A stretch of DNA of 50,850 nucleotides from a virus (lineage: Duplodnaviria; Heunggongvirae; Uroviricota; Caudoviricetes). Below are positions 4,445 to 40,729 of this stretch, in pieces. Under the pieces are notes generated by a model. The model saw only the letters and a program-made list of their open reading frames with translations, had not been told where the DNA came from and did no database searches. The first letter of the stretch is position 1. Each line of letters opens with the position of its first letter. The stretch lies in the IMG/VR virus record IMGVR_UViG_2526164600_000002; one strand, given 5' to 3'. The translations under genes were made by a program, and so were the position numbers.

Positions 4445-4566
4445 GTGAGTCACCTCTGACTGAGAGTTTACTCACTTAGCCGCGTGTCCACTATTGCTGG
4501 GTAAGATCACCCTTCCTTGCCGTAAATGGAAAGATACATCTAATTATAGAATTTATATGTTTTACC

Positions 4567-5142
4567 CTACGGCAGTGCTGGCCATTCAATATCCTGTGAA
4601 GTTGACGTATCAACACGGTTCAGCAATACCCGATACTTTTTCCATGCTTCCAGCAACGAGATTTCTTCCTCCGTTGCAATTTCCAGATCTGCAGCATCCT
4701 GAAGCGGCGCAATATGCTCACTGGCTACCTGCATCAGGTTGTTTTTTATTTCTTCCGCCTCCCGGATCCGGAACAGTTTTTCTGCTTCCGTATCCTTCAC
4801 CCAGGCTGTGCCGTTCCACTTCTGAAACTCTCCTTCCGGCGATAACCAGGTAACATTTTCCGGTAACGGACCGAGTTCAGAAATAAATAACGCGTCGCCG
4901 GAAGCCACGTCATAAACCGTTTTACCCCGATGATCTTCAACGAGATGCCACGATGACTCATCACTGTTGAAAACAGCCACGAAGCCTGCCGGAATATCTG
5001 GCGGTGCAATATCGGTACTGTTTGCTGGCAGACCTGTATGAGGCGGAATATATGCATCACCTTCACCAATAAATTCATTAGTTCCGGCCAGCAGATTATA
5101 AATTTTTATGGTCCGTGGTTGTTCACTCATTCTGAATGCCAT
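4567..5142 (-). CDS. tfa: Tail fibre assembly protein (Tfa)
   Basis: ORF track 191 aa; follows stf with overlapping stop/start; lambda-like Tfa family. Confidence 0.85.
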
Positions 5143-8100
5143 TATGCAAGCCTCACAATATAGTTAAATGCGATGTTTTTGACGGTGTTTTCCGCGTTAC
5201 CAGCAGCGTTAACGGTGATGGTGTGTCCATGTGAACCAATCGCAACGGAGTGCGTATGAGCACCAATACCGACAGTATGCGCGTGTGCACCTGCAGATGC
5301 TGCTGTGCCGGACAGTGAGTGGCTATGATTACCATCTGTACTGGTATTAGCTAACCACCCCGTAGACATACCTACTGAGCCTTGTACACCCCAGGTATTT
5401 TGACCTGAGCTTGTATAACCATATTGATAAGTATCTTTAAAAACACTGGGGTTAAATCGACGGCCATCTCTATGGCTGTGATTACCAGCTGCATTCGTGC
5501 TGCCACTTAAACTATGGGTATGCGCACCAGTGTTATTCGTGGATTTAGTGCCGTAATCAAACGACGATGTGGTTTTCGTCCCCAAATCCGTACTGGATGC
5601 GCTGGCGCTGTGGGTATGCGATTTAATGCCGTCCTGTTCCTGAGACAATACGGCCCGACCACTGGCAGGTTTGCCCTTAATCGTCCAGCCACGCATATCA
5701 GGGATCACGCCTGACGGATAAGCCGCTGCAAGTTTCGGGTATGCAGATTTGTCAAAAGCCTGCCCCTGCATCAGGGCATAACCAGACGGAACGGTATCTG
5801 ATGGCCACGGGATTGGTGCGCCGACTGGGTAGCTTTCTGGTGGAAGATTTTTCGAGGTATAAACTTCTGCCCAGTCTTCCTCAAAACCATAGCCATCTCT
5901 TGAGGAACGGTAGAACAGACCTCCATTTCTGTAATGTGCCTTCATCTGCAAGGTCCGGCAACTTCCGACTCCGGTATAGAAGTTAACCAGAATATAGGTG
6001 TCGCCAGAGCGGGTGACATTGTAAGCGCCTGATTCGGCATTCCAGGGAACGCCACCATCCGCATCGGCATATGTATCCGTTGCCCTTCTGGCAAAAGCAG
6101 CCACATGCGCGGCGGTTAAAGTAATATCTTTGGAACCATCAAACTCAACACCAGAAACCCGTCTTGGCGTTTGCAGCTTTGTTGCTGTTAATGCATTACC
6201 GTTCAGACTTGCGGACAGTTTGGTTCCAATAACCAGTTCGCCGGTTGCGTTATCAATAGAAAACGGTCTTAATGTATTCCAGCCACCATAAACATCACCT
6301 TGATTGGTAAGCAGCAGGTGAGTTTTAGCGCCATCATTACGCCATAATGCACCATACTCCCCACCTATCATTCGAATCTGATTACCACCACGCGCTACAA
6401 TTTCGTCTGTGGCAAAAAGTTTTTTGCACGACAAGTTATCGTTAACGATTAACGAATTAGACTCATAAAAACCACGCCCACTCTTAAAATCAAGGATAAC
6501 GTCCGCCGCGATACATTCAGTCGCCGGATTTGTTGCCCCAAACTTATAGGTCGTATCATTAACAACGAGATCAGCACCAGGTGCGGATATTGACAGGCCA
6601 TCTTCGATAAACGCAAAAACAGGGAAAGCTGCGCCATCAACATAGAACACAGAGCGCAAATCATCGCCCTTATTACTCATCATTATTGAGTGGATGGCTC
6701 GTTCATTGTTTTGATATTGCCAGAACATTCCATAAGCATAACGCCCCCTGTCAGTCCAGCCGCCAGGCATAACAAATCCGTTAAACTCGCAGTTATTCAT
6801 CGGATCGCCTGCGGTTCGCGTTGCCGTGGTGATAATGACCCTTGATGCCAGTTCGCTTACTGAGCCAGCAGAACGCATAACAACAACAGGGTAATATTTT
6901 CCAGATGTTGCACCTGCAGGAGCGTTAACCCGCACATAACGCATACCACGCTTATCAGCAAAGTCTGTTTTACTGACCGCGTTAATGTTGTTCAGGAAGC
7001 GTCCCTTATCGGGTATATCAGCGCCGTTCTGGTCTTTCTGCAGACGTTTCTCTGCATTGTCATAGGCTGATTTTACTGCCTTTGGCGTTGCCGCCAGCGT
7101 TTCAGACGTACTGTTGGTCGCACTGCTTAGCTGAACTATCCCTTTCTGTGCTGTCGTTGCATCCTGTGCGGTGTATTTCCCGTTAGCCAGGTCATACGCG
7201 GCCTTAACGGCTTTTGGTGTTGCCGCCAGTGACTCGGAAGTGCTGTTAGTCGCACTACTGAGCTGTACTATCCCCTTTTTCGTCGTGCTCGCATCCTCAA
7301 GCGCCACGGCGGATGCAATATCCTCTGCCCGTTTTGCCGCTGTCTCAGCGCGCGTTGCTGCAGATTCCGCCGTACTTTTGCTCTGAGCTGCTGCCGTCGC
7401 ACTGCCAGCAGCCTCTGTCGCCTTCGTGGATGCCGTCGTGGCGCTGCCCTTCGCTGCTGACGCCTGTCTGGTCGCCTCATCTTTTGAAGCAGACGCCGAT
7501 GATGCCGATGACGCCGCCGAACTGGCGGACGATGCCGCTGCCGTTTTTGAGGATTCTGCACGGGTTTCCGACGCTTTTGCGTTCGTTTCGGATGTCTTCG
7601 CTGCGGAAGCAGACCTCGCTGCTGCCGTGGCCTGCTCAGTGGCTTCGCCAGCCTTCGTTGTGGCTGTTGAAGCAGACGATGCGGCACTTTCTGCCGACTT
7701 TCCGGCAGCGGTGGCACTGGCTGAGGCCTGCCCGGCACTTGTTGACGCGGCGCTGGCAGATGATGCAGCCGCTGTTTTTGAGCCTGCCGCAGCCGAGGCG
7801 CTCTGTCCCGCTGCCGTTTCAGAAGACCTGGCGTTCGTCTCGGACGTTTTTGCCGCCTTCGCGGAATTTCCTGCCGCCGTTGCCGAGGAAGCGGCACTAC
7901 TGGCGCTCGATGATGCGTTCGTTTCTGATGATTTTGCCGCCTCTTTTGAAGCCGACGCATCCCGTGCTGAAGTGGCTGCTTCTGACGCTTTCGTGGTCGC
8001 GGTGGATGCAGAAGTGGCTGCTGATTGTTGTGACGCTGCCGCATTCGTTTCTGACGTTTTCGCCGCACCGGCACTGGTAGCCGCCGCGCTTTTTGAGGAC

Positions 8101-8678
8101 TCTGCAGCGGCAGCACTTTTTAATGCTTCAGTGGCCTTTGTTGATGCCGTTCCTGCGCTGGAAGACGCTGACTGAGCCGACGAAGCAGCCTGTCCGGCTG
8201 ACGTGCTGGCTGCGCGTGCTGAGCCTGCAGCATCAGTCGCATGGGTTGCCGCCTCACGGGCTGATGTGCTGGCATCGCTGGCTGACTTCTTCGCGGCCGC
8301 CGTGTTCTGTGCCACCGCGGACGCGTTACGCGCCACCTCTTCCACCATCAGTTCAAAACGGCGCAGTGCCTCAGGACGGGCATCATCCTCCGTCATGGCA
8401 CCGAGAAAATCATTCAGCGTACCGGGTCGGGAATCTTCATACACGGTGATGGTCCCGGCATGTGACGGCGGGAATCCTTCCACCAACAGAATAACGCTGT
8501 ACTGACCGTACTCAACGTCCATGCTGTAACGCCCGGCTTCATCCGGATTTTCTGAGGCCAGCGTGTTCACCACCACAGTGGTACTGTTACGTTTTGCTTT
8601 CAGCTGGATTGTGCAGTTCTGTACCGGTTTTCCTGTGCCGTCTTTCAGTACACCTGAAATCTTTACTGCCATATTCAC
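5142..8678 (-). CDS. stf: Side tail fibre protein (Stf), 1178 aa, with long Ala/Ser/Thr-rich low-complexity region, tandem tail-fibre repeats and C-terminal His-x-His repeats
   Basis: ORF track; N-terminus [17 protein letters not shown] typical of lambda/Rac Stf; repeated [14 protein letters not shown] motif; HTHS/HSHS/HAHT repeats at C-terminus. Confidence 0.85.
7065..7290. repeat. Two imperfect ~100-bp direct repeats inside stf, encoding the duplicated tail-fibre repeat motif; followed (7300-8300) by GC-rich Ala/Ser/Thr codon low-complexity DNA
   Basis: Repeat units read at about 7069-7160 and 7191-7290; ORF track shows open frames on both strands across 7268-8505, typical of repetitive triplet DNA. 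Confidence 0.6.
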
Positions 8679-8683
8679 CCCAC

Positions 8684-8715
8684 AAAAAAGCCCGCCTGAA
8701 CCGGCGGGCTGTCAT
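8684..8715 (-). terminator. Rho-independent terminator downstream of lom (hairpin GCCCGCC/GGCGGGC followed by T-run on minus strand)
   Basis: Inverted repeat and A-run on plus strand at 8684-8709. Confidence 0.5.
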
Positions 8716-8736
8716 AACACTGTGTTACCTGGCTAA

Positions 8737-9336
8737 TCAGAATTTATAACCGACACCCACGATGAAACCGTCAGTGCGCCAGTCGCCACTGCCGGAACCT
8801 TCATAAGCGACATCAACGGCCACGGATTCGGTCGGGTTAAACTGCACGCCAGCCCCCCACGCCAGAGACGTGTTGCTGTGGCGACCGTCATTACTTCCGA
8901 TCAGCACATCGTGCGTTTTCCCCGTATTGTCGGTCACCTGCAGATAATCCCCGGAGAAAGTCGACACACGGCTGTAAGCCACACCCGCCATCGCATACGC
9001 GCTGAACCATTCATTCACGCGCACAGACGGCCCCGCCATCACGCTGAACCAGCGGTTACGCACGGAATCTTCATGCCAGCGGGTATCGCTGTAATGCGTT
9101 TTTTGCTCATCTTCAGCGTTGGCATAACTGAATGACGTAATCAGCCCCAGCGTGTCCGTAAACTCATAACGGTATTTCACGTTAATCCCGTTCAGATTAT
9201 CGCTGCCGGGAGCGTTCGTACGGGCATGAAGATACCCTGCGCTCAGTGTGGCCTGCTGCTCAGACGCCCATGCAGGCGCACCGGATACGGCCAGACAGAT
9301 GGCTGCGGACAAAATGGCTGCACAAACTTTACGCAT
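8737..9336 (-). CDS. lom: Lom-family outer membrane protein (Ail/Lom/PagC beta-barrel) with signal peptide
   Basis: ORF track 199 aa; N-terminal signal [24 protein letters not shown]; C-terminal GYKF; position after J as in lambda. Confidence 0.85.
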
Positions 9337-9357
9337 AATTACCTCTCGCTTTTCTGC

Positions 9358-9386
9358 AATAAAAAAGGCGCCATTTCTGGCGCCCG
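9358..9386 (-). terminator. Rho-independent terminator downstream of J (hairpin GGCGCCA/TGGCGCC followed by T-run on minus strand)
   Basis: Inverted repeat 9367-9385 preceded by A-run on plus strand. Confidence 0.5.
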
Positions 9387-9403
9387 TATATGGGTTATAA
9401 AAT

Positions 9404-12400
9404 TCAGCTGATGCTGATGCCTGCGGTGGCTTTCTTCATCACCACAACCAGCAAATCGCTGATACTTGCTGTGGGATACCAGTCATTTACCAGCCATGCT
9501 GACACCGAAAACTCCAGCGTCATGTGGCCGTGACCAGCTGGCATATCAATAACACCACTGTAAATCAGCGTATTATCCAGCGCGGTACGGTTATAAATTT
9601 CAGCACCATTTTTCTTCACTATCAGGCGGCATGACGAATAAATATCGTTATTCTCCCGCTCATGTTTAGCGCCGCAGAATGCCACCGCCGGAATAACAAT
9701 TTGCCTGTCAAAAGGCTGATCGTCATAAATCCTGACGGTAATGGTCCCTGATGGCCACCGCTCCGGTGCCCGGGAGTCCCGCGGGAAAGCCTTACCCACT
9801 GTTTTGACAATATCGCCTTCAATCTGGTTGGCTGACAGTTTCCCTTTAATCTGACAGTTCTCATTTATCGTAACGTTGTTGAGCGTCCCGGAGTTCGCAT
9901 TCACACTGCCACTGATATCTGCATTTTTAGCGGTCAACTTTCCGTCCGGTGTCAGGGAAAATGCCGGAGGATTACCGCCGCTGGTAATGGTGGGAGCCGT
10001 CAGATATTTCAGGAACACTTCATTCATGAATATCTGATCACCCTGACCAACAAACATCGGTTTTGTGTTGCCATTTGCAGGATTAATCATCGCAATCCTG
10101 TCTGCCGCCAGCAGCACCTGACTCTGCATGCCGTCGGGGGTGTTCTCAATACCGGCACCGATACCCGCGATATAAAGGCGTCCGTCCTGCATCTGCTGCA
10201 GCTTCACAGCCCACATGCTGTTCAGATTATTATTTGTATCAACCTGAACCTTCTGTATCTGCTGGATCGCTGCACTCTGGTCTTCCAGTTTCTTATTGAC
10301 GGTCTGTGTGATTTCATTGCTGACATCCGTAATGGATGTCCTGATTTCAGCCAGGTCAGGCGCAAGCTGACCGTTATCAATCTGCGTCCACAGCTCCTGA
10401 GCCAGATGGGTTTTCCCTATCTCGCCTTTGAAAAAATCCAGATAGCCGGATGCGTCATCACTCGGCTGACCAACAGCCTCCACGAATGCCGATTTGCCAA
10501 CGGTGTTCACACTGCGAACGTAAAAATAATAATTATGGCCCGGCCTGATATTGATACTGGCGGCTATCCAGTACAGCGCCGTGCCAAGATAGCGTGCTGT
10601 GGTTTCAACCTGCCTGATATCCGCAATCCGCTTTTCCGAGAACCAGAACTCAAACTGTACCGTCGGATCATAAACCGCAAGATGCGGCGTGGCGGTTATC
10701 TGAAAATAGCCCGGCGTCAGCTCAATCCGCGACGGCGCTGCCGGTGCGGCAATCCGGAACGATACCGACGCCGGATCGCCCTGCTGCCCCCACGCATTTA
10801 CTGCCCGGACTGTCAGCCTGTAGTTCCCCAGAGCCAGTTGTGTGAAGCGGTAAGTGGTTTCCGTCGTCCGGGCCGTGCTGACCAGCCGCTCACTGCCGTC
10901 ATCCGCTGCCACGGTCAGGCGAAGCATGAAACTCACGCCCTTCACCACCTTCGGCGTGTCCCAGCGGGCCAGTACCTGATACTCCCCGCTGTCTGCGGTG
11001 ACTTCGGCAGTCAGGTGATGCACTGCTGGCGGCGTGACACCATTCACCGTGCCGCTCTGGTCGCCGTCAAAGTGCGCCCCGTTATCCACGATAGCTTCTT
11101 TTTCCGGTACATGCTGCACGGCGGTGATGGCATACGTGCCGTCGTCGTTCTCACGGATACTCACGCAGCGGAACAGGCGCTGGCGCAGCGTCGGCAGCTT
11201 CAGCCCCCATACGCTGTATCCGGCAACGCCGTCAGGAACACGGCTCACTTTTACCTTCACGCCGTCGGTGACGGACTGGACCTCCACGCTGACCGGATTG
11301 CCACTTCCGTCAACCAGGCTTATCAGCGTGGTACCGGAGGATGGCAGCGTGATTTCACGGTCGAGCGTCAGCGTCCGGGTCTGGCTGTTCACCGCCAGCA
11401 CGCGCCCGCCGGTGCTGATCCCCGCATAGTCATCATCGCAGATTTCAATGACATCGCCCGGCACATGGCGAAGCCCTTCCGCACCCACGCTGAAGTCCAC
11501 GGTCTGCGTTTCCAGCAGTTCTGTTTTAATCAGCCACAGCCCGGCGCGGTGCGCCTGCCCCCGGCTGGTACAGCCAAAGGCATCCATCTTCGTGACGTTA
11601 CGACCGTAACGGAGAATGGCCTGCGTATCTTCAACAAGCTCTGTCGCCGTCTCCCAGCCGTTATCCGGGTCAATCCAGTTCACCTCAACGGCATTATGAC
11701 GGTCCTTCAGGGCACTGAAGCTGTAGCGGAACGGCGCGCCATCATCCGGCATCACCACATTACTGCGGTTATAGGTCCACACCTTATCCGACGGTCGGTC
11801 CTGCACGAACGTCAGCGTCTGCCCGTTCCATACCGGCATACAGCGCATCGCCGAGCAGAAATCACTGAGAACATCCCACGCCTTGCGCTGTGTGGTCAGG
11901 TAGGCATTACAGGTGATGCGCGGCTCCGTGCCACCAAAGCCATCCGGCACCGACTGGTCGCAATTCTGGCCGATGACATACAGCGCCCATTTGTCCACAT
12001 CCGCCGCACCGAGACGCTTCCCCATGCCGTAGCGCGGATGGGTCAGCATATCCCACAGACACCAGGCCATGTTGTTGCTGTATGCTGGCTTAAACGTTCC
12101 GTCCCAGATACCGCTGTATTGCCGCGTCTGCGGGTTATAGTTCGACGGCACCTGCAGAATGCGCCCGCGAAGATGATAATTACGGCTCACCTGCTGGCTG
12201 CCGAACTGTTCCGAGTCCACCTGCACGCCGACCAGTGCCGTGTTCGGGTAGCACTGTTTCACATCGATGATTTCGGTGTATGACGACCAGAGCGTTTTGT
12301 TCTGCAGCTGGTCTGTGGTGCTGTCCGGCGTCATTCTGCGCATCCGGATATTAAACGGGCGCGGCGGCAGGTTATCCACCACCACCGAGGCCAGATACTG

Positions 12401-36857: not shown

Positions 36858-36890
36858 GAAAATAAAAACAAAAACCCGCCGAAGCGGGTT
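36858..36890 (-). terminator. Rho-independent terminator at 3' end of hokD mRNA (hairpin AACCCGC/GCGGGTT plus T-run on minus strand)
   Basis: Inverted repeat 36873-36890 preceded by A-rich run on plus strand. Confidence 0.5.
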
Positions 36891-36958
36891 AAGTGCGGGT
36901 GCGTTGAGGATGCCTGCCACATCAGAGGTGGCGAGGGATTTCTCCCCCGCCGGGTCTC

Positions 36959-37114
36959 TTACTCCTCAGGTTCGTAAGCTGTGAAGACAGCGACCTCCGT
37001 CTGGCCGGTTCGGATTCGTACCTCGCAGAGGTCTTTCCTCGTTACCAGTGCCGTCACTATGACGGTTAAACAGATGACGATCAGGGCGATTAACATCGCC
37101 TTTTGCTGCTTCAT
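36959..37114 (-). CDS. hokD: Hok-family type I toxin HokD (RelF), 51 aa
   Basis: Manual translation MKQQKAMLIALIVICLTVIVTALVTRKDLCEVRIRTGQTEVAVFTAYEPEE; below the 60-aa ORF-track cutoff. Confidence 0.85.
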   Translation of the reverse strand: MKQQKAMLIALIVICLTVIVTALVTRKDLCEVRIRTGQTEVAVFTAYEPEE

Positions 37115-37185
37115 AGCCTGCTTCTCCTGTCAACGCAAAGCAGAAGTGTCACCTTCGGTGCGAAACAGAGATGTCATGCTTTGGT

Positions 37186-37473
37186 TCAGAGAATGCGTTT
37201 GACCGCCTCGCTATATACTTCCGAGCGTTCTCTTTTCCCAACAGAAATCACGAAAACGACAACTTTCTCGTCTATAACCTGGTATACAAGGCGATAGCCT
37301 GAAGACCGGAGCTTAATCTTGTAACAATCAGGCATACCACGGAGCTTGTTTGCTTCAATCCGGGGTGACTCAAGTACTTCAACCAGCTTCTTTTTCAACT
37401 GTTCACGTACCGTCGAGCCCAGCTTTCGCCATTCCTTTAGTGCCCGCTCGTCAAAATCCAGAAAATACGCCAT
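37186..37473 (-). CDS. relE: RelE mRNA interferase toxin
   Basis: ORF track 95 aa. Confidence 0.9.
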   Translation of the reverse strand: MAYFLDFDERALKEWRKLGSTVREQLKKKLVEVLESPRIEANKLRGMPDCYKIKLRSSGYRLVYQVIDEKVVVFVISVGKRERSEVYSEAVKRIL

Positions 37474-37712
37474 CAGAGTTCATCCAGCGTCACACGTACT
37501 GGCTTAGGATTACGAAGCCGTTCTTTCACTATCTCCACAAGTTCAGCATCTTCATCACTCAGGAGTGTCTGTTTGAACGGCAAGCGTTCATTGTCAGCGA
37601 TATACTCGAGCATGAGACGAAGCGCTTCAGAAGGAGTTACACCCATTTTTTCAAGCGCGGCGTAAGAACGCGCTTTAAGTTCATCGTCAATACGCAGGTT
37701 AATGCTACCCAT
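37473..37712 (-). CDS. relB: RelB antitoxin
   Basis: ORF track 79 aa; overlaps relE start. Confidence 0.9.
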   Translation of the reverse strand: MGSINLRIDDELKARSYAALEKMGVTPSEALRLMLEYIADNERLPFKQTLLSDEDAELVEIVKERLRNPKPVRVTLDEL

Positions 37713-37723
37713 GTCTTACACCT

Positions 37724-37749
37724 CTTGTAATTACAAATGTCATTACAAG
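37724..37749 (-). promoter_or_regulatory. relBE operator region with inverted repeats (TTGTAATTACAA and CTTGTAATGACA)
   Basis: Palindromes read directly upstream of the relB RBS. Confidence 0.55.
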
Positions 37750-38042
37750 TATCGCACTACAACATGCTTAGGGCAAGTCACGAAGGAAGTCAGAAAGTAG
37801 TCGTAAGAACGGTGATCACTGTCCGCTTTGTGCCAGGAGCAGCCATTGCTAAGTCCATCCTGTATTGTGCAGGTCAGCTCGTTTTTAAAGAGTCCGGCCA
37901 TCATCTTACTGGTACAGACACCATATACTTTGTGACGGTCAGGCTACATATGCACAACTCAACTTATTCATCTATTTTTTGCTTTAGCATGTCAGTGTTG
38001 CTTTCTCGTCGGCGGGTGAGCGGTGACCTGACCTGTCGATAA
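37737..38042 (+). CDS. Hypothetical protein, 101 aa (position and length of ydfV in Qin)
   Basis: ORF track; no motif; composition not strongly protein-like. Confidence 0.3.
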   Translation: MSLQVSHYNMLRASHEGSQKVVVRTVITVRFVPGAAIAKSILYCAGQLVFKESGHHLTGTDTIYFVTVRLHMHNSTYSSIFCFSMSVLLSRRRVSGDLTCR

Positions 38043-38244
38043 AGGAACGTAACACGTTTTATGCAACACCCGCATGCGGCAGAAAATTATTGCCGAACGT
38101 TTACCCCTGTCAACAAGCTTTACTTTCTGAGGCGCGCCAGCCCGCGAGGAAAACAATCTGAACATCAAACAATTAATGACACAAGAAATACGATTAAAGA
38201 TTTTTTTGTACATGCCGATAGTGCTTTTTTAAAAGGAGAAATCT

Positions 38245-38577
38245 ATGTCTGTCACAATTCAGGGAAATACCTCAACCGTTATTTCAAACAACTCCGCCCC
38301 GGAAGGAACATCAGAAATAGCCAAAATCACAAGACAAATTCAGGTGCTGACTGAAAAGCTTGGGAAAATCTCATCGGAAGAGGGGATGACGACACAGCAG
38401 AAAAAAGAAATGGCTGCATTGGTACAGAAGCAAATTGAAAGCCTCTGGGCTCAACTGGAGCAGTTGTTAAGGCAGCAGGCAGAGAAAAAGAATGAAGACG
38501 CGACAGTTCAGCCTGATAAAAAAGAAGAGAAAAAAGACGATACAAATACCGCTGGCACCATTGATATTTACGTCTAA
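38245..38577 (+). CDS. flxA: FlxA-like protein (110 aa, Gln/Lys/Glu-rich)
   Basis: ORF track; recognised as FlxA of Qin. Confidence 0.8.
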   Translation: MSVTIQGNTSTVISNNSAPEGTSEIAKITRQIQVLTEKLGKISSEEGMTTQQKKEMAALVQKQIESLWAQLEQLLRQQAEKKNEDATVQPDKKEEKKDDTNTAGTIDIYV

Positions 38578-38591
38578 GTGACAGCCGTATT

Positions 38592-38614
38592 GTGGCCCTC
38601 ATCGGGCCACTTTT
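38592..38614 (+). terminator. Rho-independent terminator after flxA (GTGGCCC-TCATC-GGGCCAC then TTTT)
   Basis: Inverted repeat and T-run read directly. Confidence 0.55.
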
Positions 38615-39013
38615 CGCCATCAGCCTTTTCTTTAAAGACATATTATCTTTGTATCATTTCTGATAGTTAACATTACAAGATATAAGTAATGGACGCACTC
38701 CCAATTAGTCTATTTAAATCGCCACGAGTTTAACTGACAACCCATGATCAATTATGAATTGCAACTATTTCTGTAGTCACTTTTGTGGGGACAGTCCACA
38801 AAACTGCCAACTTCCGCTTCTTGCTCTTAGCGGACATTAGCATAGGCTATTTACCATAACGCCTCATTACGCGCACCGCCCAGACTGACTCAGCGCGTTT
38901 CTGGCATATCCCCGGTAAAACAAGTAACAAACCACCCGAAAATGAACACCAGAAACGCGACTTAAGAATCTACCCTATGAATGGATATGCACTCAACCGA
39001 ATCGATCTTGGTT

Positions 39014-40354
39014 TCAATCTTTTTTATCGGGATCAGGCTTCTTTTTAGGTAACTTCGGGGGCTTAACTTGCTGATGACTTTGCGTTCGGCGCGTAAGCCA
39101 GGGATGGTCAGCTTTAGGTTTAACATAGTATTTTGAGCGTAAATCAATACGGGCATTATCCACTCGTTCATGGACACTCTTTTCATCATCCAGTGGTATA
39201 GGCTCCGGGCCATCAACATACTTTTCCCAGCCCAGCGCTTTCCCGTCATACAGAACGTTAATTTCACCGTCAAAGTTCTCGCATACAGTAACAACCGAAT
39301 GCCTAAGTCGATATCCCCGGCTCTCACTGCGTACCTGAAACGCACTGCTTTTGTACTGGAAAGTGAGATTTTTAGACAGAACGCGCTTCGCCTGTAGGCT
39401 GAAGATATAACCCAGTTCCTCTTCAGAATGGTGCACATCAAGATGAGCATTATCAGTAGTACGAGGCGACGTAGCGAACCGGTTGTTATAGGCTTCAATA
39501 AAGGTCGGCAACCATGCATTTGCTGTTTCAATATCACTGATATTCTGAAGCCGCATTTCTTTGACCAGCCTGTCCTGTAGTGTCTGATTGGCGCGCTCTA
39601 CCCGCCCTTTTGCCTGCGGGCTGTTGGCATGGATTGGCTCGATGCCCAGTGTCTTTATCGCACGAGTGAACTGGGTCAGCTCACCTTCCCGCTCTGGGTT
39701 ATTTACCCTGAATATACTGTGTCTATCAGAGTAGAGAGCGAGCGGTACGCCACGATCATTAAGGTAACCCCGGAGGGTTTCCATGTAAGCCCGGGTTGTT
39801 TCAGCAGGCACAAAACGCAACGCCATCAACGCACTGGTGGCATCATCAATGAAAACGATCAGTGTACATCTGGGGCCTCGATTTTCAAACCAGTCATGAG
39901 GTGAGCCATCAATCTGGATCAGTTCACCGTAAGATGGTCGTCGCATGCGGCGTTGATATATACGGGCAATTTTACGACGGCGTTCACGCCATAACCCCTC
40001 TTCTATCATCCACTTTCTGAGAGTTTCAACGGATAAAGATAAACCGTGTATCTCGCGCAATTTTTCGCACGCAAACGTAGGTCCAAAATCAGCGTAACGG
40101 CCTTTGAGGAGTGAAATTACTGTTGCTCTGAATTCAGTAGAAAAGGAATTATTAGGACGCTTTCCACGTCGGTGGGAAACCAGACCAGAAGGCCCTTCAT
40201 TTCTATACCGTTGCACCAGACGTTTAACCTGCCGAATAGAAATGCCAATGCGTGCCGCAGCTTGTTCCTGAGTAATATGTCGATTAATTGACTCCTGAAT
40301 AATCTGAAGTCGGTGGAGTTCCTTATGACTCATCGTAACAGTCTCTTTGATCAT
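39014..40354 (-). CDS. DDE (integrase-core) transposase, IS481-like family (tentative), N-terminal HTH
   Basis: ORF track 446 aa; HTH region ARIGISIRQVKRLVQRYRNEG; DDE-type motifs IQIDGS...YSDRHSIF...PQAKGRVERANQTL. Confidence 0.8.
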   Translation of the reverse strand: MIKETVTMSHKELHRLQIIQESINRHITQEQAAARIGISIRQVKRLVQRYRNEGPSGLVSHRRGKRPNNSFSTEFRATVISLLKGRYADFGPTFACEKLREIHGLSLSVETLRKWMIEEGLWRERRRKIARIYQRRMRRPSYGELIQIDGSPHDWFENRGPRCTLIVFIDDATSALMALRFVPAETTRAYMETLRGYLNDRGVPLALYSDRHSIFRVNNPEREGELTQFTRAIKTLGIEPIHANSPQAKGRVERANQTLQDRLVKEMRLQNISDIETANAWLPTFIEAYNNRFATSPRTTDNAHLDVHHSEEELGYIFSLQAKRVLSKNLTFQYKSSAFQVRSESRGYRLRHSVVTVCENFDGEINVLYDGKALGWEKYVDGPEPIPLDDEKSVHERVDNARIDLRSKYYVKPKADHPWLTRRTQSHQQVKPPKLPKKKPDPDKKD

Positions 40355-40729
40355 GAAAAATCCCCCAGAGAATTGTCTGGGGACATTTTAGAATGGTTCA
40401 AAGGGGACATTACAGCTTGGTGTTAACAATAGCCTGCTTCTCCGTGCCTTTCGGCACGTAAGAGGCTAACCTACATGTGTCTAGCATGAAATTGGCCTCA
40501 GATTAATGTTAAGCGTCTTGCAGGACGCGTAATGTTAACTGGGGCTTTTCTCTATCTGCCGTTGGTGTCCATGCCCGAGGCAGATAGCCTCAAGCACCCG
40601 CAGTCATTCTACTTAACTAAGATTTCCCCGCAAACCGTTTTTGTCCAGCACAGTAAATATCCAACTAAACCAATGGAGTTCGCTGTATTTACCGCCAGTA
40701 TTCAATGCACATGACCGCCATGAACACCC

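Follow-up and report, generated by a model that had tools for sequence, protein, structure and literature searches.

A probable IS1202-family unit transposon carrying relBE lies between the hokD and sok halves of a split toxin locus

The closest described relatives of the element reported here belong to the IS1202 family. Insertion sequences of the ISAjo2 group share with it TGT...ACA tips, imperfect inverted repeats (24-30 bp), a second inner repeat and orientation-specific insertion beside a conserved short site (Harmer, Pong and Hall 2023, PMC10132070). They are 1.5 kb long, make duplications of 3-5 bp and are found beside dif-like sites, at a distance of 5 bp from the XerC arm (PMC10132070), whereas our family makes duplications of about 15 bp, prefers hok leaders and carries a cer-like site internally. 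Extra coding capacity between the ends is known from the transporter IS, namely ISKpn21, ISKpn65 and ISRel10, in the form of one additional ORF of unknown function (PMC10132070); our family instead combines a Xer site and a toxin-antitoxin operon with interchangeable cargo of 1-10 kb. Duplications in the IS1202 family are, by subgroup, 3-5 bp, 16-28 bp (>15 in the abstract) or none (PMC10132070), and the 15 bp found here, with 13-16 bp in relatives, is nearest to the long-duplication type.

An IS1202-family transposase has been modelled on TnsB (PMC10132070). Tn7 resembles our element in its TGT/ACA tips, in having several binding repeats per end (putative here) and in inserting in a site- and orientation-specific manner. 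However, its duplication is 5 bp and ours is 15 bp, and no tnsA, tnsC or tnsD-like genes are present here, the only other ORFs being relE, relB, ydfV and flxA. Lima-Mendez et al. reportedly described, in mBio in 2020, Tn3-family transposons with integral toxin-antitoxin pairs. As in those transposons, the type II module of our element is a fixed part of the backbone and not ordinary cargo, but the transposase is of another family, there is no dedicated resolvase, and the module, placed distally, reads out into the target gene. Integration of relBE into hokD was noted earlier (Ramisetty and Santhosh 2016, cited in PMC6379469), and as cited there no vehicle is named for it (PMC6379469).

In the window, i.e., the whole 50,850-nucleotide stretch of virus record IMGVR_UViG_2526164600_000002 that was analysed, positions 37128-40428 very probably form a unit transposon of the IS1202 family (ISEsa1 type) with the structure and mechanism proposed below. 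In the orientation of the transposase the order is A end, leader hairpin, tnp, cer-like site, flxA and ydfV, relB-relE, B end. In the full-text literature searched, no published description of this transposon or of hok targeting was found; the element may already have a name in ISfinder or TnCentral. The features are as follows.

36959..37114, minus strand: hokD coding sequence, the toxin half of the split hok/sok locus (PGAP annotation of the identical strain MEI005; translation)
37113..37127, no strand: target-site duplication, left copy, ATAGCCTGCTTCTCC (15/15 repeat abutting both ends; single in the CP53 empty site)
37128..40428, minus strand: complete transposon, 3,301 bp (plasmid identity block, inverted repeats, duplication, empty site)
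37128..37157, plus strand: terminal inverted repeat of the B end (transposase-distal), TGTCAACGCAAAGCAGAAGTGTCACCTTCG (22/30 against the A end)
37186-37473, minus strand: relE (Pfam ParE_toxin)
37473-37712, minus strand: relB (Pfam RelB)
37737-38042, plus strand: ydfV, variable cargo (annotation)
38245-38577, plus strand: flxA, variable cargo (annotation; Pfam FlxA)
38787..38793, plus strand: third GGGGACA, within the variable cargo, 16 bp beyond the edge of the conserved transposase module
38811..38840, no strand: small inverted repeat, AATGTCCGCT...AGCGGA in transposase orientation (comparison of variants)
38850..38995, minus strand: cer-like Xer site (arm matches; ColRNAI plasmid homology; variant comparison)
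39014..40354, minus strand: transposase gene, 446 aa, intact (ORF listing; domain and family profile searches)
40363..40382, minus strand: leader hairpin, CCCCAGAGAATTGTCTGGGG (terminator-like call, fold, relatives)
40379-40387 and 40403-40411, minus strand: two AATGTCCCC repeats, putative transposase binding sites (conserved in relatives)
40399..40428, minus strand: terminal inverted repeat of the A end (transposase-proximal), TGTTAACACCAAGCTGTAATGTCCCCTTTG on the minus strand (against the B end and relatives)
40428..40599, minus strand: sok and hok-leader half of the split locus (Rfam RF01794 sok)
40429..40443, no strand: target-site duplication, right copy, ATAGCCTGCTTCTCC (perfect 15-bp repeat)

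The tips of the transposon have the form TGT...ACA (TGTCAACGC... / TGTCAAC... from 37128; ...GTTAACA ending at 40428), and the inverted repeats of the two ends match imperfectly, at 22 of 30 positions. A perfect 15-bp duplication abuts both tips, and its left copy takes in the Shine-Dalgarno sequence of hokD and the first two letters of the start codon ATG. At the B end, a further TGTCAT repeat follows about 25 bp inward (TGTCACC and TGTCATG, 25 bp apart); both are degenerate relative to the AATGTCCCC of the A end, and the same B end is present in 15 related elements. Thus TGT/ACA tips, imperfect inverted repeats and a second inner-repeat copy near each end are all found here, as in the IS1202 family. 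Plasmid pEnt261 and an IncI plasmid match window 37108/37110-40430/40499 at 99.0-99.7% identity; complete identity with the two is confined to 37128-40428, and the flanks are divergent hok loci. The first-pass annotation, which placed the element at 38700-40460 with uncertain boundaries, had found no clear terminal inverted repeats and thus, in effect, ends unlike those expected of a simple IS. Both points hold for that interval: neither an inverted-repeat pair nor a duplication is present on either side of 38700-40460. Of the two ends, the right one, at 40428, is the only one to fall within it; the left end, at 37128, is 1.6 kb outside it. The mobile unit is accordingly larger than had been proposed and includes relE, relB, ydfV and flxA, so that flxA is inside the element rather than separated by it from the replication module.

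The interrupted locus is hokD/sok, not the flxA-dicC interval. The transposon directly precedes the hokD start codon, with hokD at its left tip and sok and the leader at its right. hokD retains its Shine-Dalgarno sequence, within the left duplication copy, and its translation begins MKQQKAMLIAL... (read in L019, which has an identical junction). The sok match starts at the right tip and covers the full model (RF01794, 104.1 bits against a gathering score of 59, E = 1e-23). hok leader and coding sequence are 3,301 bp apart in the window, but adjoin each other in other E. coli genomes, at least 1,146 of them, counted as genomes covering at least 80% of the joined-flank query; the joined flanks with one copy of the 15-mer are found there at 98.8% identity. 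In strain CP53 the empty-site junction was read directly and holds the 15-mer in single copy. The empty sites lack relBE, ydfV, flxA and tnp together.

This joint absence bears on a smaller mobile unit, a simple IS of 1.6-1.7 kb between flxA and the prophage regulatory genes, to which relBE, ydfV and flxA would be resident neighbors. The length of ISEsa1 in ISfinder agrees with such a unit (1,609 bp; its inverted repeats are reported to match at 15/22, and no duplication was detected; PMC10132070), as does a Cronobacter sakazakii plasmid whose transposase module matches window 38819-40428 (1,610 bp) at 91.5% DNA identity, and variants keep the module but differ in the DNA to its left. However, the A and B ends recur in this Cronobacter plasmid, where they enclose 6,093 bp and are flanked by a 15-bp duplication, and the 6,093-bp variant L010, which is identical to that plasmid copy, has the IS110-type ISEsa2 inserted at the 1,609-bp point. 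Homology among variants stops at 38809-38820 through a change of cargo or the ISEsa2 insertion, and neither an inverted repeat nor a duplication is found there, including at 38819-38820. A left end at 38809, the boundary of plasmid homology, was rejected: it is without TGT tip, repeat or duplication and corresponds to the border between conserved transposase module and variable cargo. The small inverted repeat at 38811..38840 lies on this border and is the insertion point of ISEsa2 and IS30 in relatives. In addition, an IncI plasmid has all 3,301 bp, at 99.7% identity, in another hok locus and with another duplication. A simple IS has 1.3-1.75 kb and a transposase only, whereas this element has 3,301 bp, four further genes and a cer-like site. 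We therefore regard the smaller unit as very unlikely and favor the 3,301-bp transposon.

The window element shares with ISEsa1 the transposase lineage and the transposase-proximal end. The ISEsa1 entry is 1,609 bp, whereas in the window and the Cronobacter plasmid the ends are 3.3-6.1 kb apart, with a 15-bp duplication, and enclose a cer-like site, cargo and relBE. Since the 1,609-bp point coincides with the ISEsa2 insertion, the entry probably describes part of an element, covering only the transposase module. It had been expected that a known IS with canonical inverted repeats might settle the boundaries; a known name was found, but the repeats reported for it match at 15/22 and come with no detectable duplication. 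The supplement of PMC10132070 contains nothing on ISEsa1.

The earlier reading of an HTH plus integrase-core ORF of 446 aa as the DDE transposase gene of a mobile element is borne out by the ORF at 39014-40354 and its Pfam domains (HTH_28/29/32/23 at residues 10-116, rve_3 at 238-291). Its assignment as IS481-like is not. The HTH plus rve layout is common to both families and the IS481 model NF033577 gives a weak match (129.9 bits, 1.3e-37), but this score is under the cut-off of 224, whereas NF033594 (transpos_ISNCY_2), with a cut-off of 250, reaches 463.8 bits over residues 17-377. The PGAP name is 'IS1202-like element ISEsa1 family transposase', and the end architecture agrees with IS1202-family relatives. 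An IS481-family origin is thus almost certainly wrong, and by its profile matches the protein is an ISNCY/IS1202-family transposase of predicted DDE type. The exact protein occurs on 110 contigs, where it is named ISNCY family transposase. A sequence search of the structure database was uninformative, giving only a marginal match to a retroviral integrase (E = 0.0045). In strains identical to the window, this intact ORF is annotated as "protein YdfW" plus a partial pseudogene.

GGGGACA occurs on the plus strand at 38787, 40379 and 40403. The three same-orientation motifs of the first-pass annotation are therefore present, though 4-10 bp from where it put them. The motif is no more frequent than chance predicts (5 matches in the window, 5.07 expected), and only the copies at 40379 and 40403 are meaningful, because they have a 24-bp spacing inside the terminal 50 bp and are conserved in relatives. 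As the AATGTCCCC pair they persist in relatives down to 44-50% transposase identity, and on this comparison they represent subterminal repeats conserved at the transposase-proximal end. The copy at 38787 was considered as a vestigial end, having the orientation of an A-type end and matching one at 16/26 by eye. However, it lies in variant-specific cargo, is missing from variants with other cargo and occurs in a motif count at chance level; it is probably a chance occurrence.

The imperfect 20-bp palindrome noted earlier just before the transposase gene is CCCCAGAGAATTGTCTGGGG, at 40363-40382. It forms a leader hairpin 8 nt upstream of the start codon, pairing the inner repeat with a Shine-Dalgarno-like GGGGGA, and is followed by a U-run and the ATG. 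The hairpin folds at -22.5 kcal/mol (z = -2.2) and was detected as terminator-like, and an equivalent one exists in 80%-identical relatives despite differing stem sequences. We infer that it limits transposase expression.

Related elements with the same ends range from 3,301 to 12,843 bp and have duplications of 13-16 bp, each copying local sequence. The two-repeat end architecture is conserved across distant relatives. ydfV and flxA are replaced by other genes in related elements, including genes for nickel/chromate, arsenic and cation efflux, and 12 of 14 elements have relBE at the B end, the other two having a TacA/GNAT pair there. Among 16 independent insertions, 10 are at the same position of different hok loci, with at least seven different sequences duplicated, and six are elsewhere. 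An nhmmer profile of the hok site gave no match at these six, which argues that they are true non-hok sites. Specificity for the hok site is, in this set, a strong apparent preference and not an absolute one. At most sites GGCAA, or at least CAA, adjoins the duplication on the A-end side; this motif is short, and it is absent at two or three sites (L021, L026, L078). The rule also holds for a minimal relative of 1,449 bp in Hahella, with duplications of 15-16 bp.

Because homologous hok/sok flanks are present at 10 of the 16 sites, it is conceivable that the segment from relBE to tnp spread among hok loci by homologous recombination or gene conversion, with the 15-bp repeats as a by-product. 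This we consider highly improbable. Each site has its own local 13-16 bp duplicated exactly at the tips, the flanks are only about 75% identical compared with at least 99% for the element, non-hok sites too have duplications of 14-16 bp, and the TGT/ACA tips bear inverted repeats. We therefore prefer transposition.

Just after tnp, at a fixed position, every cargo-carrying member has a cer-like XerC/XerD site. In the window its core is at 38850-38878 on the minus strand, GGTGCGCGTAA-TGAGGCG-TTATGGTAAAT, with the layout of an 11-bp XerC arm, a 6-8-bp spacer and an 11-bp XerD arm. Each arm matches the dif-like arms GGTGCGCATAA and TTATGTTAAAT (PMC10132070 Table 8) at 10 of 11 positions. In all enterobacterial variants the arms are conserved and the spacer is variable. 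About 120 bp of accessory-like sequence adjoins the core on the XerC side, and many small ColRNAI plasmids share with the site a stretch of about 110-150 bp at 75-83% identity, beginning exactly at the XerD arm, as expected of kinship with ColE1-type plasmids.

At relBEF, the relB-relE-hokD operon of its Qin prophage, K-12 matches the window without a difference from hokD past flxA to 39198, a stretch that takes in the final 185 bp of the transposase gene. Beyond this point it has lost window 39199 to about 44022, with 39198 joined to sequence at about 44023. This deletion took most of tnp, the A end and sok; "ydfW" of K-12 is a remnant of the transposase C-terminus, and the transposon is unrecognisable there. 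Comparison of the flxA-dicC interval with supposedly uninterrupted strains, as had been advised, is therefore misleading where K-12 is used, since K-12 is a deletion derivative and was rejected as an empty site. The window sequence suggests that relBE, ydfV, flxA and "ydfW" came together as one transposon splitting hokD from sok. Since relatives have hit the same spot in other hok/sok loci, this would be the origin of the E. coli relBE-hokD arrangement, and because the transposon split hokD from sok, hokD would be left without antisense control and co-transcribed with relBE.

The structure may be as described and the window copy may still be an inactive fossil, left by a single ancient insertion into a Qin-like prophage and passed on together with it. 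The same site with the same duplication is found in Shigella and in E. coli W, and the K-12 deletion junction is present in 360 genomes. The 796 genomes that carry the A end have a median of one copy each; of the 811 places in all, 799 lie on chromosomes. A shorter form of the A end recurs, with a match span of 173 instead of 200 bp; in E. coli W it has an internal 27-bp deletion and hairpin substitutions. In E. coli chromosomes the element is nearly always single-copy at the hokD site and often decayed, and the window copy may for this reason be inherited and not recently active. However, its ORF, both ends and both repeats are intact, and the exact protein is on 110 contigs. The near-identical copies on the IncI plasmid and on an Enterobacter IncF plasmid (99.0%) argue for recent movement of the window variant. 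We consider a fossil copy possible, but it is not the reading that we favor.

Returning to the unit transposon, we propose the following mechanism. The transposase would bind the terminal and subterminal repeats at both ends and join the ACA-3' tips to the target with a stagger of about 15 bp. It would strongly prefer, in one orientation, a site after a GGCAA-like motif, and such a preferred site may be provided by TGCCGAAAGGCA, a conserved hairpin that closely precedes the ribosome-binding site of hok. Insertion there would separate the hok coding sequence from mok, Sok and the native promoter, and would leave hok downstream of the relBE operon of the transposon, a type II toxin-antitoxin operon read out via the B end into hokD. 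This gives the relB-relE-hokD arrangement known from K-12. More speculatively, and with considerable doubt, the cargo-carrying elements may be replicative transposons that use host resolution. If a TnsB-like transposase acting alone makes cointegrates, host XerCD could resolve them at the cer-like site. On the same speculative reading the transposon would also take over addiction loci of plasmids and prophages: it would disable hok/sok control, place hok under the relBE promoter and supply its own multimer-resolution site, swapping the stability functions of a replicon for its own.

For the one IS1202 subgroup that the literature leaves without them (PMC10132070), these findings provide true ends, a target duplication and a favored target, and they suggest that the reference database entry ISEsa1 apparently covers only part of an element. 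They also correct a common annotation, in that the split "protein YdfW" plus pseudogene is an intact transposase ORF. A concrete origin is suggested for the classic relBE-hokD locus of E. coli K-12. The backbone moves nickel, chromate, arsenic and cation-efflux genes among plasmids of Klebsiella, Enterobacter, Citrobacter, Cronobacter and E. coli. That it lands in post-segregational killing loci bears on the tracing of metal-resistance spread and on plasmid stability.

A 3,301-bp transposon carrying relE, relB, ydfV, flxA and the transposase gene (tnp) has split a hok/sok locus, with the break falling after the leader/sok region and ahead of the hok ribosome-binding site. This follows from several lines of evidence. 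Enterobacter pEnt261 and an E. coli IncI plasmid share 99.0-99.7% identity with the window from 37108/37110 to 40430/40499. Complete identity in these alignments is confined to the segment from TGTCAAC... (37128) through ...GTTAACA (40428), and the plasmid flanks outside it are homologous yet clearly different hok loci. The termini are inverted repeats that match at 22 of 30 positions and have TGT/ACA tips, and they are abutted by a perfect 15-bp direct repeat. When both flanks were joined through a single copy of this 15-mer, the resulting empty-site query had an uninterrupted match at 98.8% identity. Coverage of 80% or more of the query is reached in at least 1,146 of 5,426 complete E. coli genomes, and strain CP53 has precisely the predicted junction. 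On the right, the flank matches the Rfam sok model over its full length, starting at the element tip (104 bits, gathering score 59); on the left, it begins with the start codon of hokD. The boundaries are thus not uncertain, as the first-pass annotation had it, and the terminal inverted repeats that it could not clearly find are present; nor does the insertion separate flxA from the replication and immunity module, since flxA is carried inside. Just downstream of hokD (36869-36950, minus strand) there is also a weak match to Rfam isrK (25.1 bits, E = 0.019), which falls below the gathering score of 50 and is probably not meaningful.

Features of the transposon, in window coordinates
37113-37127 and 40429-40443: 15-bp target duplication ATAGCCTGCTTCTCC, directly repeated at both ends
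38787, 40379 and 40403, plus strand: GGGGACA motifs
38850-38878: core of a cer-like site, GGTGCGCGTAA-TGAGGCG-TTATGGTAAAT, just after tnp
38850-38995: the cer-like XerC/XerD site with accessory-like sequence, inside the transposon
39014-40354, minus strand: transposase open reading frame (tnp), 446 aa
40363-40382: palindrome CCCCAGAGAATTGTCTGGGG, 8 nt before the tnp start codon

A comparison with the uninterrupted flxA-dicC interval in other strains had been proposed earlier, but the interrupted locus is hok/sok. K-12, which we considered as an empty site and rejected, is a deletion derivative. K-12 is identical to the window through hokD, relE, relB, ydfV and flxA up to 39198, inside tnp, and then jumps to sequence at about 44023. 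It is without 39199 to about 44022 (4.8 kb), including most of tnp, the transposase-proximal end (A end), sok and several prophage genes, and its gene ydfW consists of the final 49 codons of the window transposase. The deletion junction (position 2359 of the K-12 locus, within ydfX) is found in 360 of the 5,426 genomes. Of the 5,426, 796 carry the A end, nearly always as a single chromosomal copy. In a recurrent class, comprising many of the E. coli matches listed, the match spans 173 instead of 200 bp; the one member read, E. coli W (L090, about 4501-4673), has an internal 27-bp deletion in the 5' part of tnp. Its hairpin carries two substitutions in the left palindrome arm (CCCCCAG to CCACGAG). 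Because of the single-copy A end, the K-12 junction and the E. coli W class, the chromosomal copy has the look of a single old insertion now decaying in many lineages. Plasmid copies that are nearly identical and sit at other hok loci indicate that the window variant has moved recently. In strains identical to the window, RefSeq splits the intact reading frame into 'protein YdfW' (39014-39163) and a partial transposase pseudogene (39284-40333), which looks like an artefact inherited from annotation of the K-12 remnant.

The domain search detected both an N-terminal helix-turn-helix and an integrase core in the 446-aa protein, in agreement with the earlier description. Its assignment as IS481-like is unsupported, since the NCBIfam IS481 model gives 129.9 bits (cut-off 224) and the ISNCY model 463.8 bits (cut-off 250). 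For this region, identical in other strains, RefSeq gives the name "IS1202-like element ISEsa1 family transposase", and 110 contigs encode the exact protein, there named ISNCY family transposase. The IS1202 family was defined by Harmer, Pong and Hall (2023; PMC10132070), with an ISEsa1 subgroup for which neither a detectable duplication nor a target was identified. The last 27 residues of the transposase (39014-39096) form a lysine/proline-rich tail without counterpart in relatives from Hahella, Chlamydiae and Massilia, whose matches end at residue 419. The DNA directly 3' of the stop codon merges into the cer-like accessory homology, and the 3' end of tnp may have been remodelled upon acquisition of the cer-like segment.

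The A end reads TGTTAACACCAAGCTGTAATGTCCCC-N15-AAAATGTCCCC on the minus strand. Its AATGTCC repeat pair, with 24-bp spacing, persists in relatives whose transposase identity is as low as 44-50%, among them Rhabdochlamydiaceae, Massilia and Castellaniella, and in the Hahella element the pair is also found, inverted, at the other end. This arrangement agrees with the extra transposase binding site near each end described for the IS1202 family (PMC10132070). The three same-strand GGGGACA motifs noted previously are present, though without enrichment (5 in the window versus 5.07 expected from shuffles), and they are significant only by position and conservation in relatives. Two of them, at 40379 and 40403, are the AATGTCC repeats. 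The copy at 38787 lies within variant-specific cargo and is missing from other variants; we take it as a probable chance occurrence. The palindrome, also correctly placed upstream of the start codon on first pass, pairs the inner repeat with a GGGGGA Shine-Dalgarno-like sequence, and a U-run and the ATG follow. It is terminator-like by consensus scan and folds at -22.5 kcal/mol (z = -2.2); relatives of 80% identity have an equivalent hairpin with different stem sequences. The hairpin would likely limit transposase expression from transcripts entering via the hok promoter.

Each arm of the cer-like site matches dif-like arms listed in PMC10132070 at 10 of 11 positions. About 120 bp on the XerC side are 75-83% identical to many small ColRNAI plasmids, and this homology begins exactly at the XerD arm. 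The site has a constant element coordinate in almost every enterobacterial variant (displaced in locus L021, lost in L078), with conserved arms and a variable spacer. Since other IS1202-family members insert beside dif-like sites (PMC10132070), the link to an internal cer-like site may not be accidental. A small inverted repeat follows the site, and beyond it, about 40 bp from the site, variable cargo starts. The transposase module of a Cronobacter sakazakii plasmid matches 38819-40428 (1,610 bp); on this plasmid 6,093 bp lie between the same A end and transposase-distal B end, which are flanked by a 15-bp duplication. In this variant (L010/L087), an IS110-type element annotated ISEsa2 (1,493 bp) interrupts the small inverted repeat at about element coordinate 1609 (near window 38820), and in L012 and L025 an IS30-type element lies a few bp away. 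This spot may be a secondary insertion hotspot. The ISEsa2 junction coincides with the length of ISfinder ISEsa1, which is listed at 1,609 bp, with inverted repeats matching 15/22 and without a duplication (PMC10132070). From this published length rather than the ISfinder sequence itself, we infer that the ISEsa1 entry covers only the stretch between the A end and the ISEsa2 junction and so would not be a complete element.

The same two ends enclose other cargo elsewhere. On a Phytobacter plasmid they are 12,843 bp apart and flank ncrABCY, chrBA, other genes and relBE, with the 15-bp duplication GGAGAAGTCAGCTAT directly before another hok ATG. A scan for relatives with one genome per species returned 78 loci, in which the Enterobacteriaceae elements span 3.3-9.1 kb between ends. 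Their cargo includes cytochrome b561 with a cation-diffusion transporter, arsRBC/arsH with a CLC channel, LysR/TauE/thioesterase, a tartrate dehydrogenase/glycerate kinase/MFS set, GrpB with a hexapeptide acetyltransferase, and secondary IS110 and IS30 insertions. Of 14 elements, 12 have relBE adjoining the B end, and the two Scandinavium elements without it have a TacA/GNAT toxin-antitoxin pair in its position. Hahella sp. SMD15-11 has at least 10 copies (L028-L038, L055) of a cargo-less 1,449-bp relative with 62% transposase identity; two of these (L029, L037) directly adjoin the end of another IS-like sequence, GGACAGTTCTATTTGTTGCTAACA.

Among 16 independent insertions examined, ten share one position in different hok loci (the window, L003, L006, L008, L010, L013, L016, L027 and two in tandem in L024), and a hok-site profile search of the other six insertion sites gave no match. 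Duplications of related elements are 13-16 bp, each copying local sequence. On the transposase-proximal side, most sites have GGCAA, or CAA at the minimum, immediately before the duplication, and the Hahella relative has 15-16-bp duplications with the same CAA tendency. In hok leaders the GGCAA-like motif is the 3' arm of a conserved hairpin, TGCCGAAAGGCA. At a hokE-type locus the insertion follows the motif and lies within the coding sequence, which argues that the motif, not the ATG, determines the insertion point. The determinant could be DNA sequence, DNA structure or a bound protein. In Leclercia sp. EMC7 (L024), one hok site is occupied by two related elements in head-to-tail order (6654-11554 and from 11565), with 10 bp between the B end of the first and the A end of the second; there is therefore seemingly no immunity to a second insertion.

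A review (PMC6379469) credits Ramisetty and Santhosh (2016) with the idea that relBE integrated into hokD from plasmids and names no vehicle; nor is one mentioned in a 2026 preprint about Hok diversity. The full-text literature, as far as covered, contains no description of hok targeting, of the window transposon or of its ncr/chr version. Since this coverage is incomplete and ISfinder and TnCentral lie outside it, the novelty of the transposon is provisional.

In the best-supported model, built on sequence comparison, a TnsB-like DDE transposase would bind, at each end, the terminal and the subterminal repeats, join the ACA-3' tips to target DNA at positions staggered by about 15 bp, and select, in one orientation, sites following a GGCAA-like motif, which hok leaders would supply. 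Co-transcription of relB, relE and hokD is established (Gotfredsen and Gerdes 1998, as cited in PMC5120126). The insertion severs the hok coding sequence from its promoter, mok and Sok, leaves it a copy of its ribosome-binding site through the duplication, and places it downstream of relBE.
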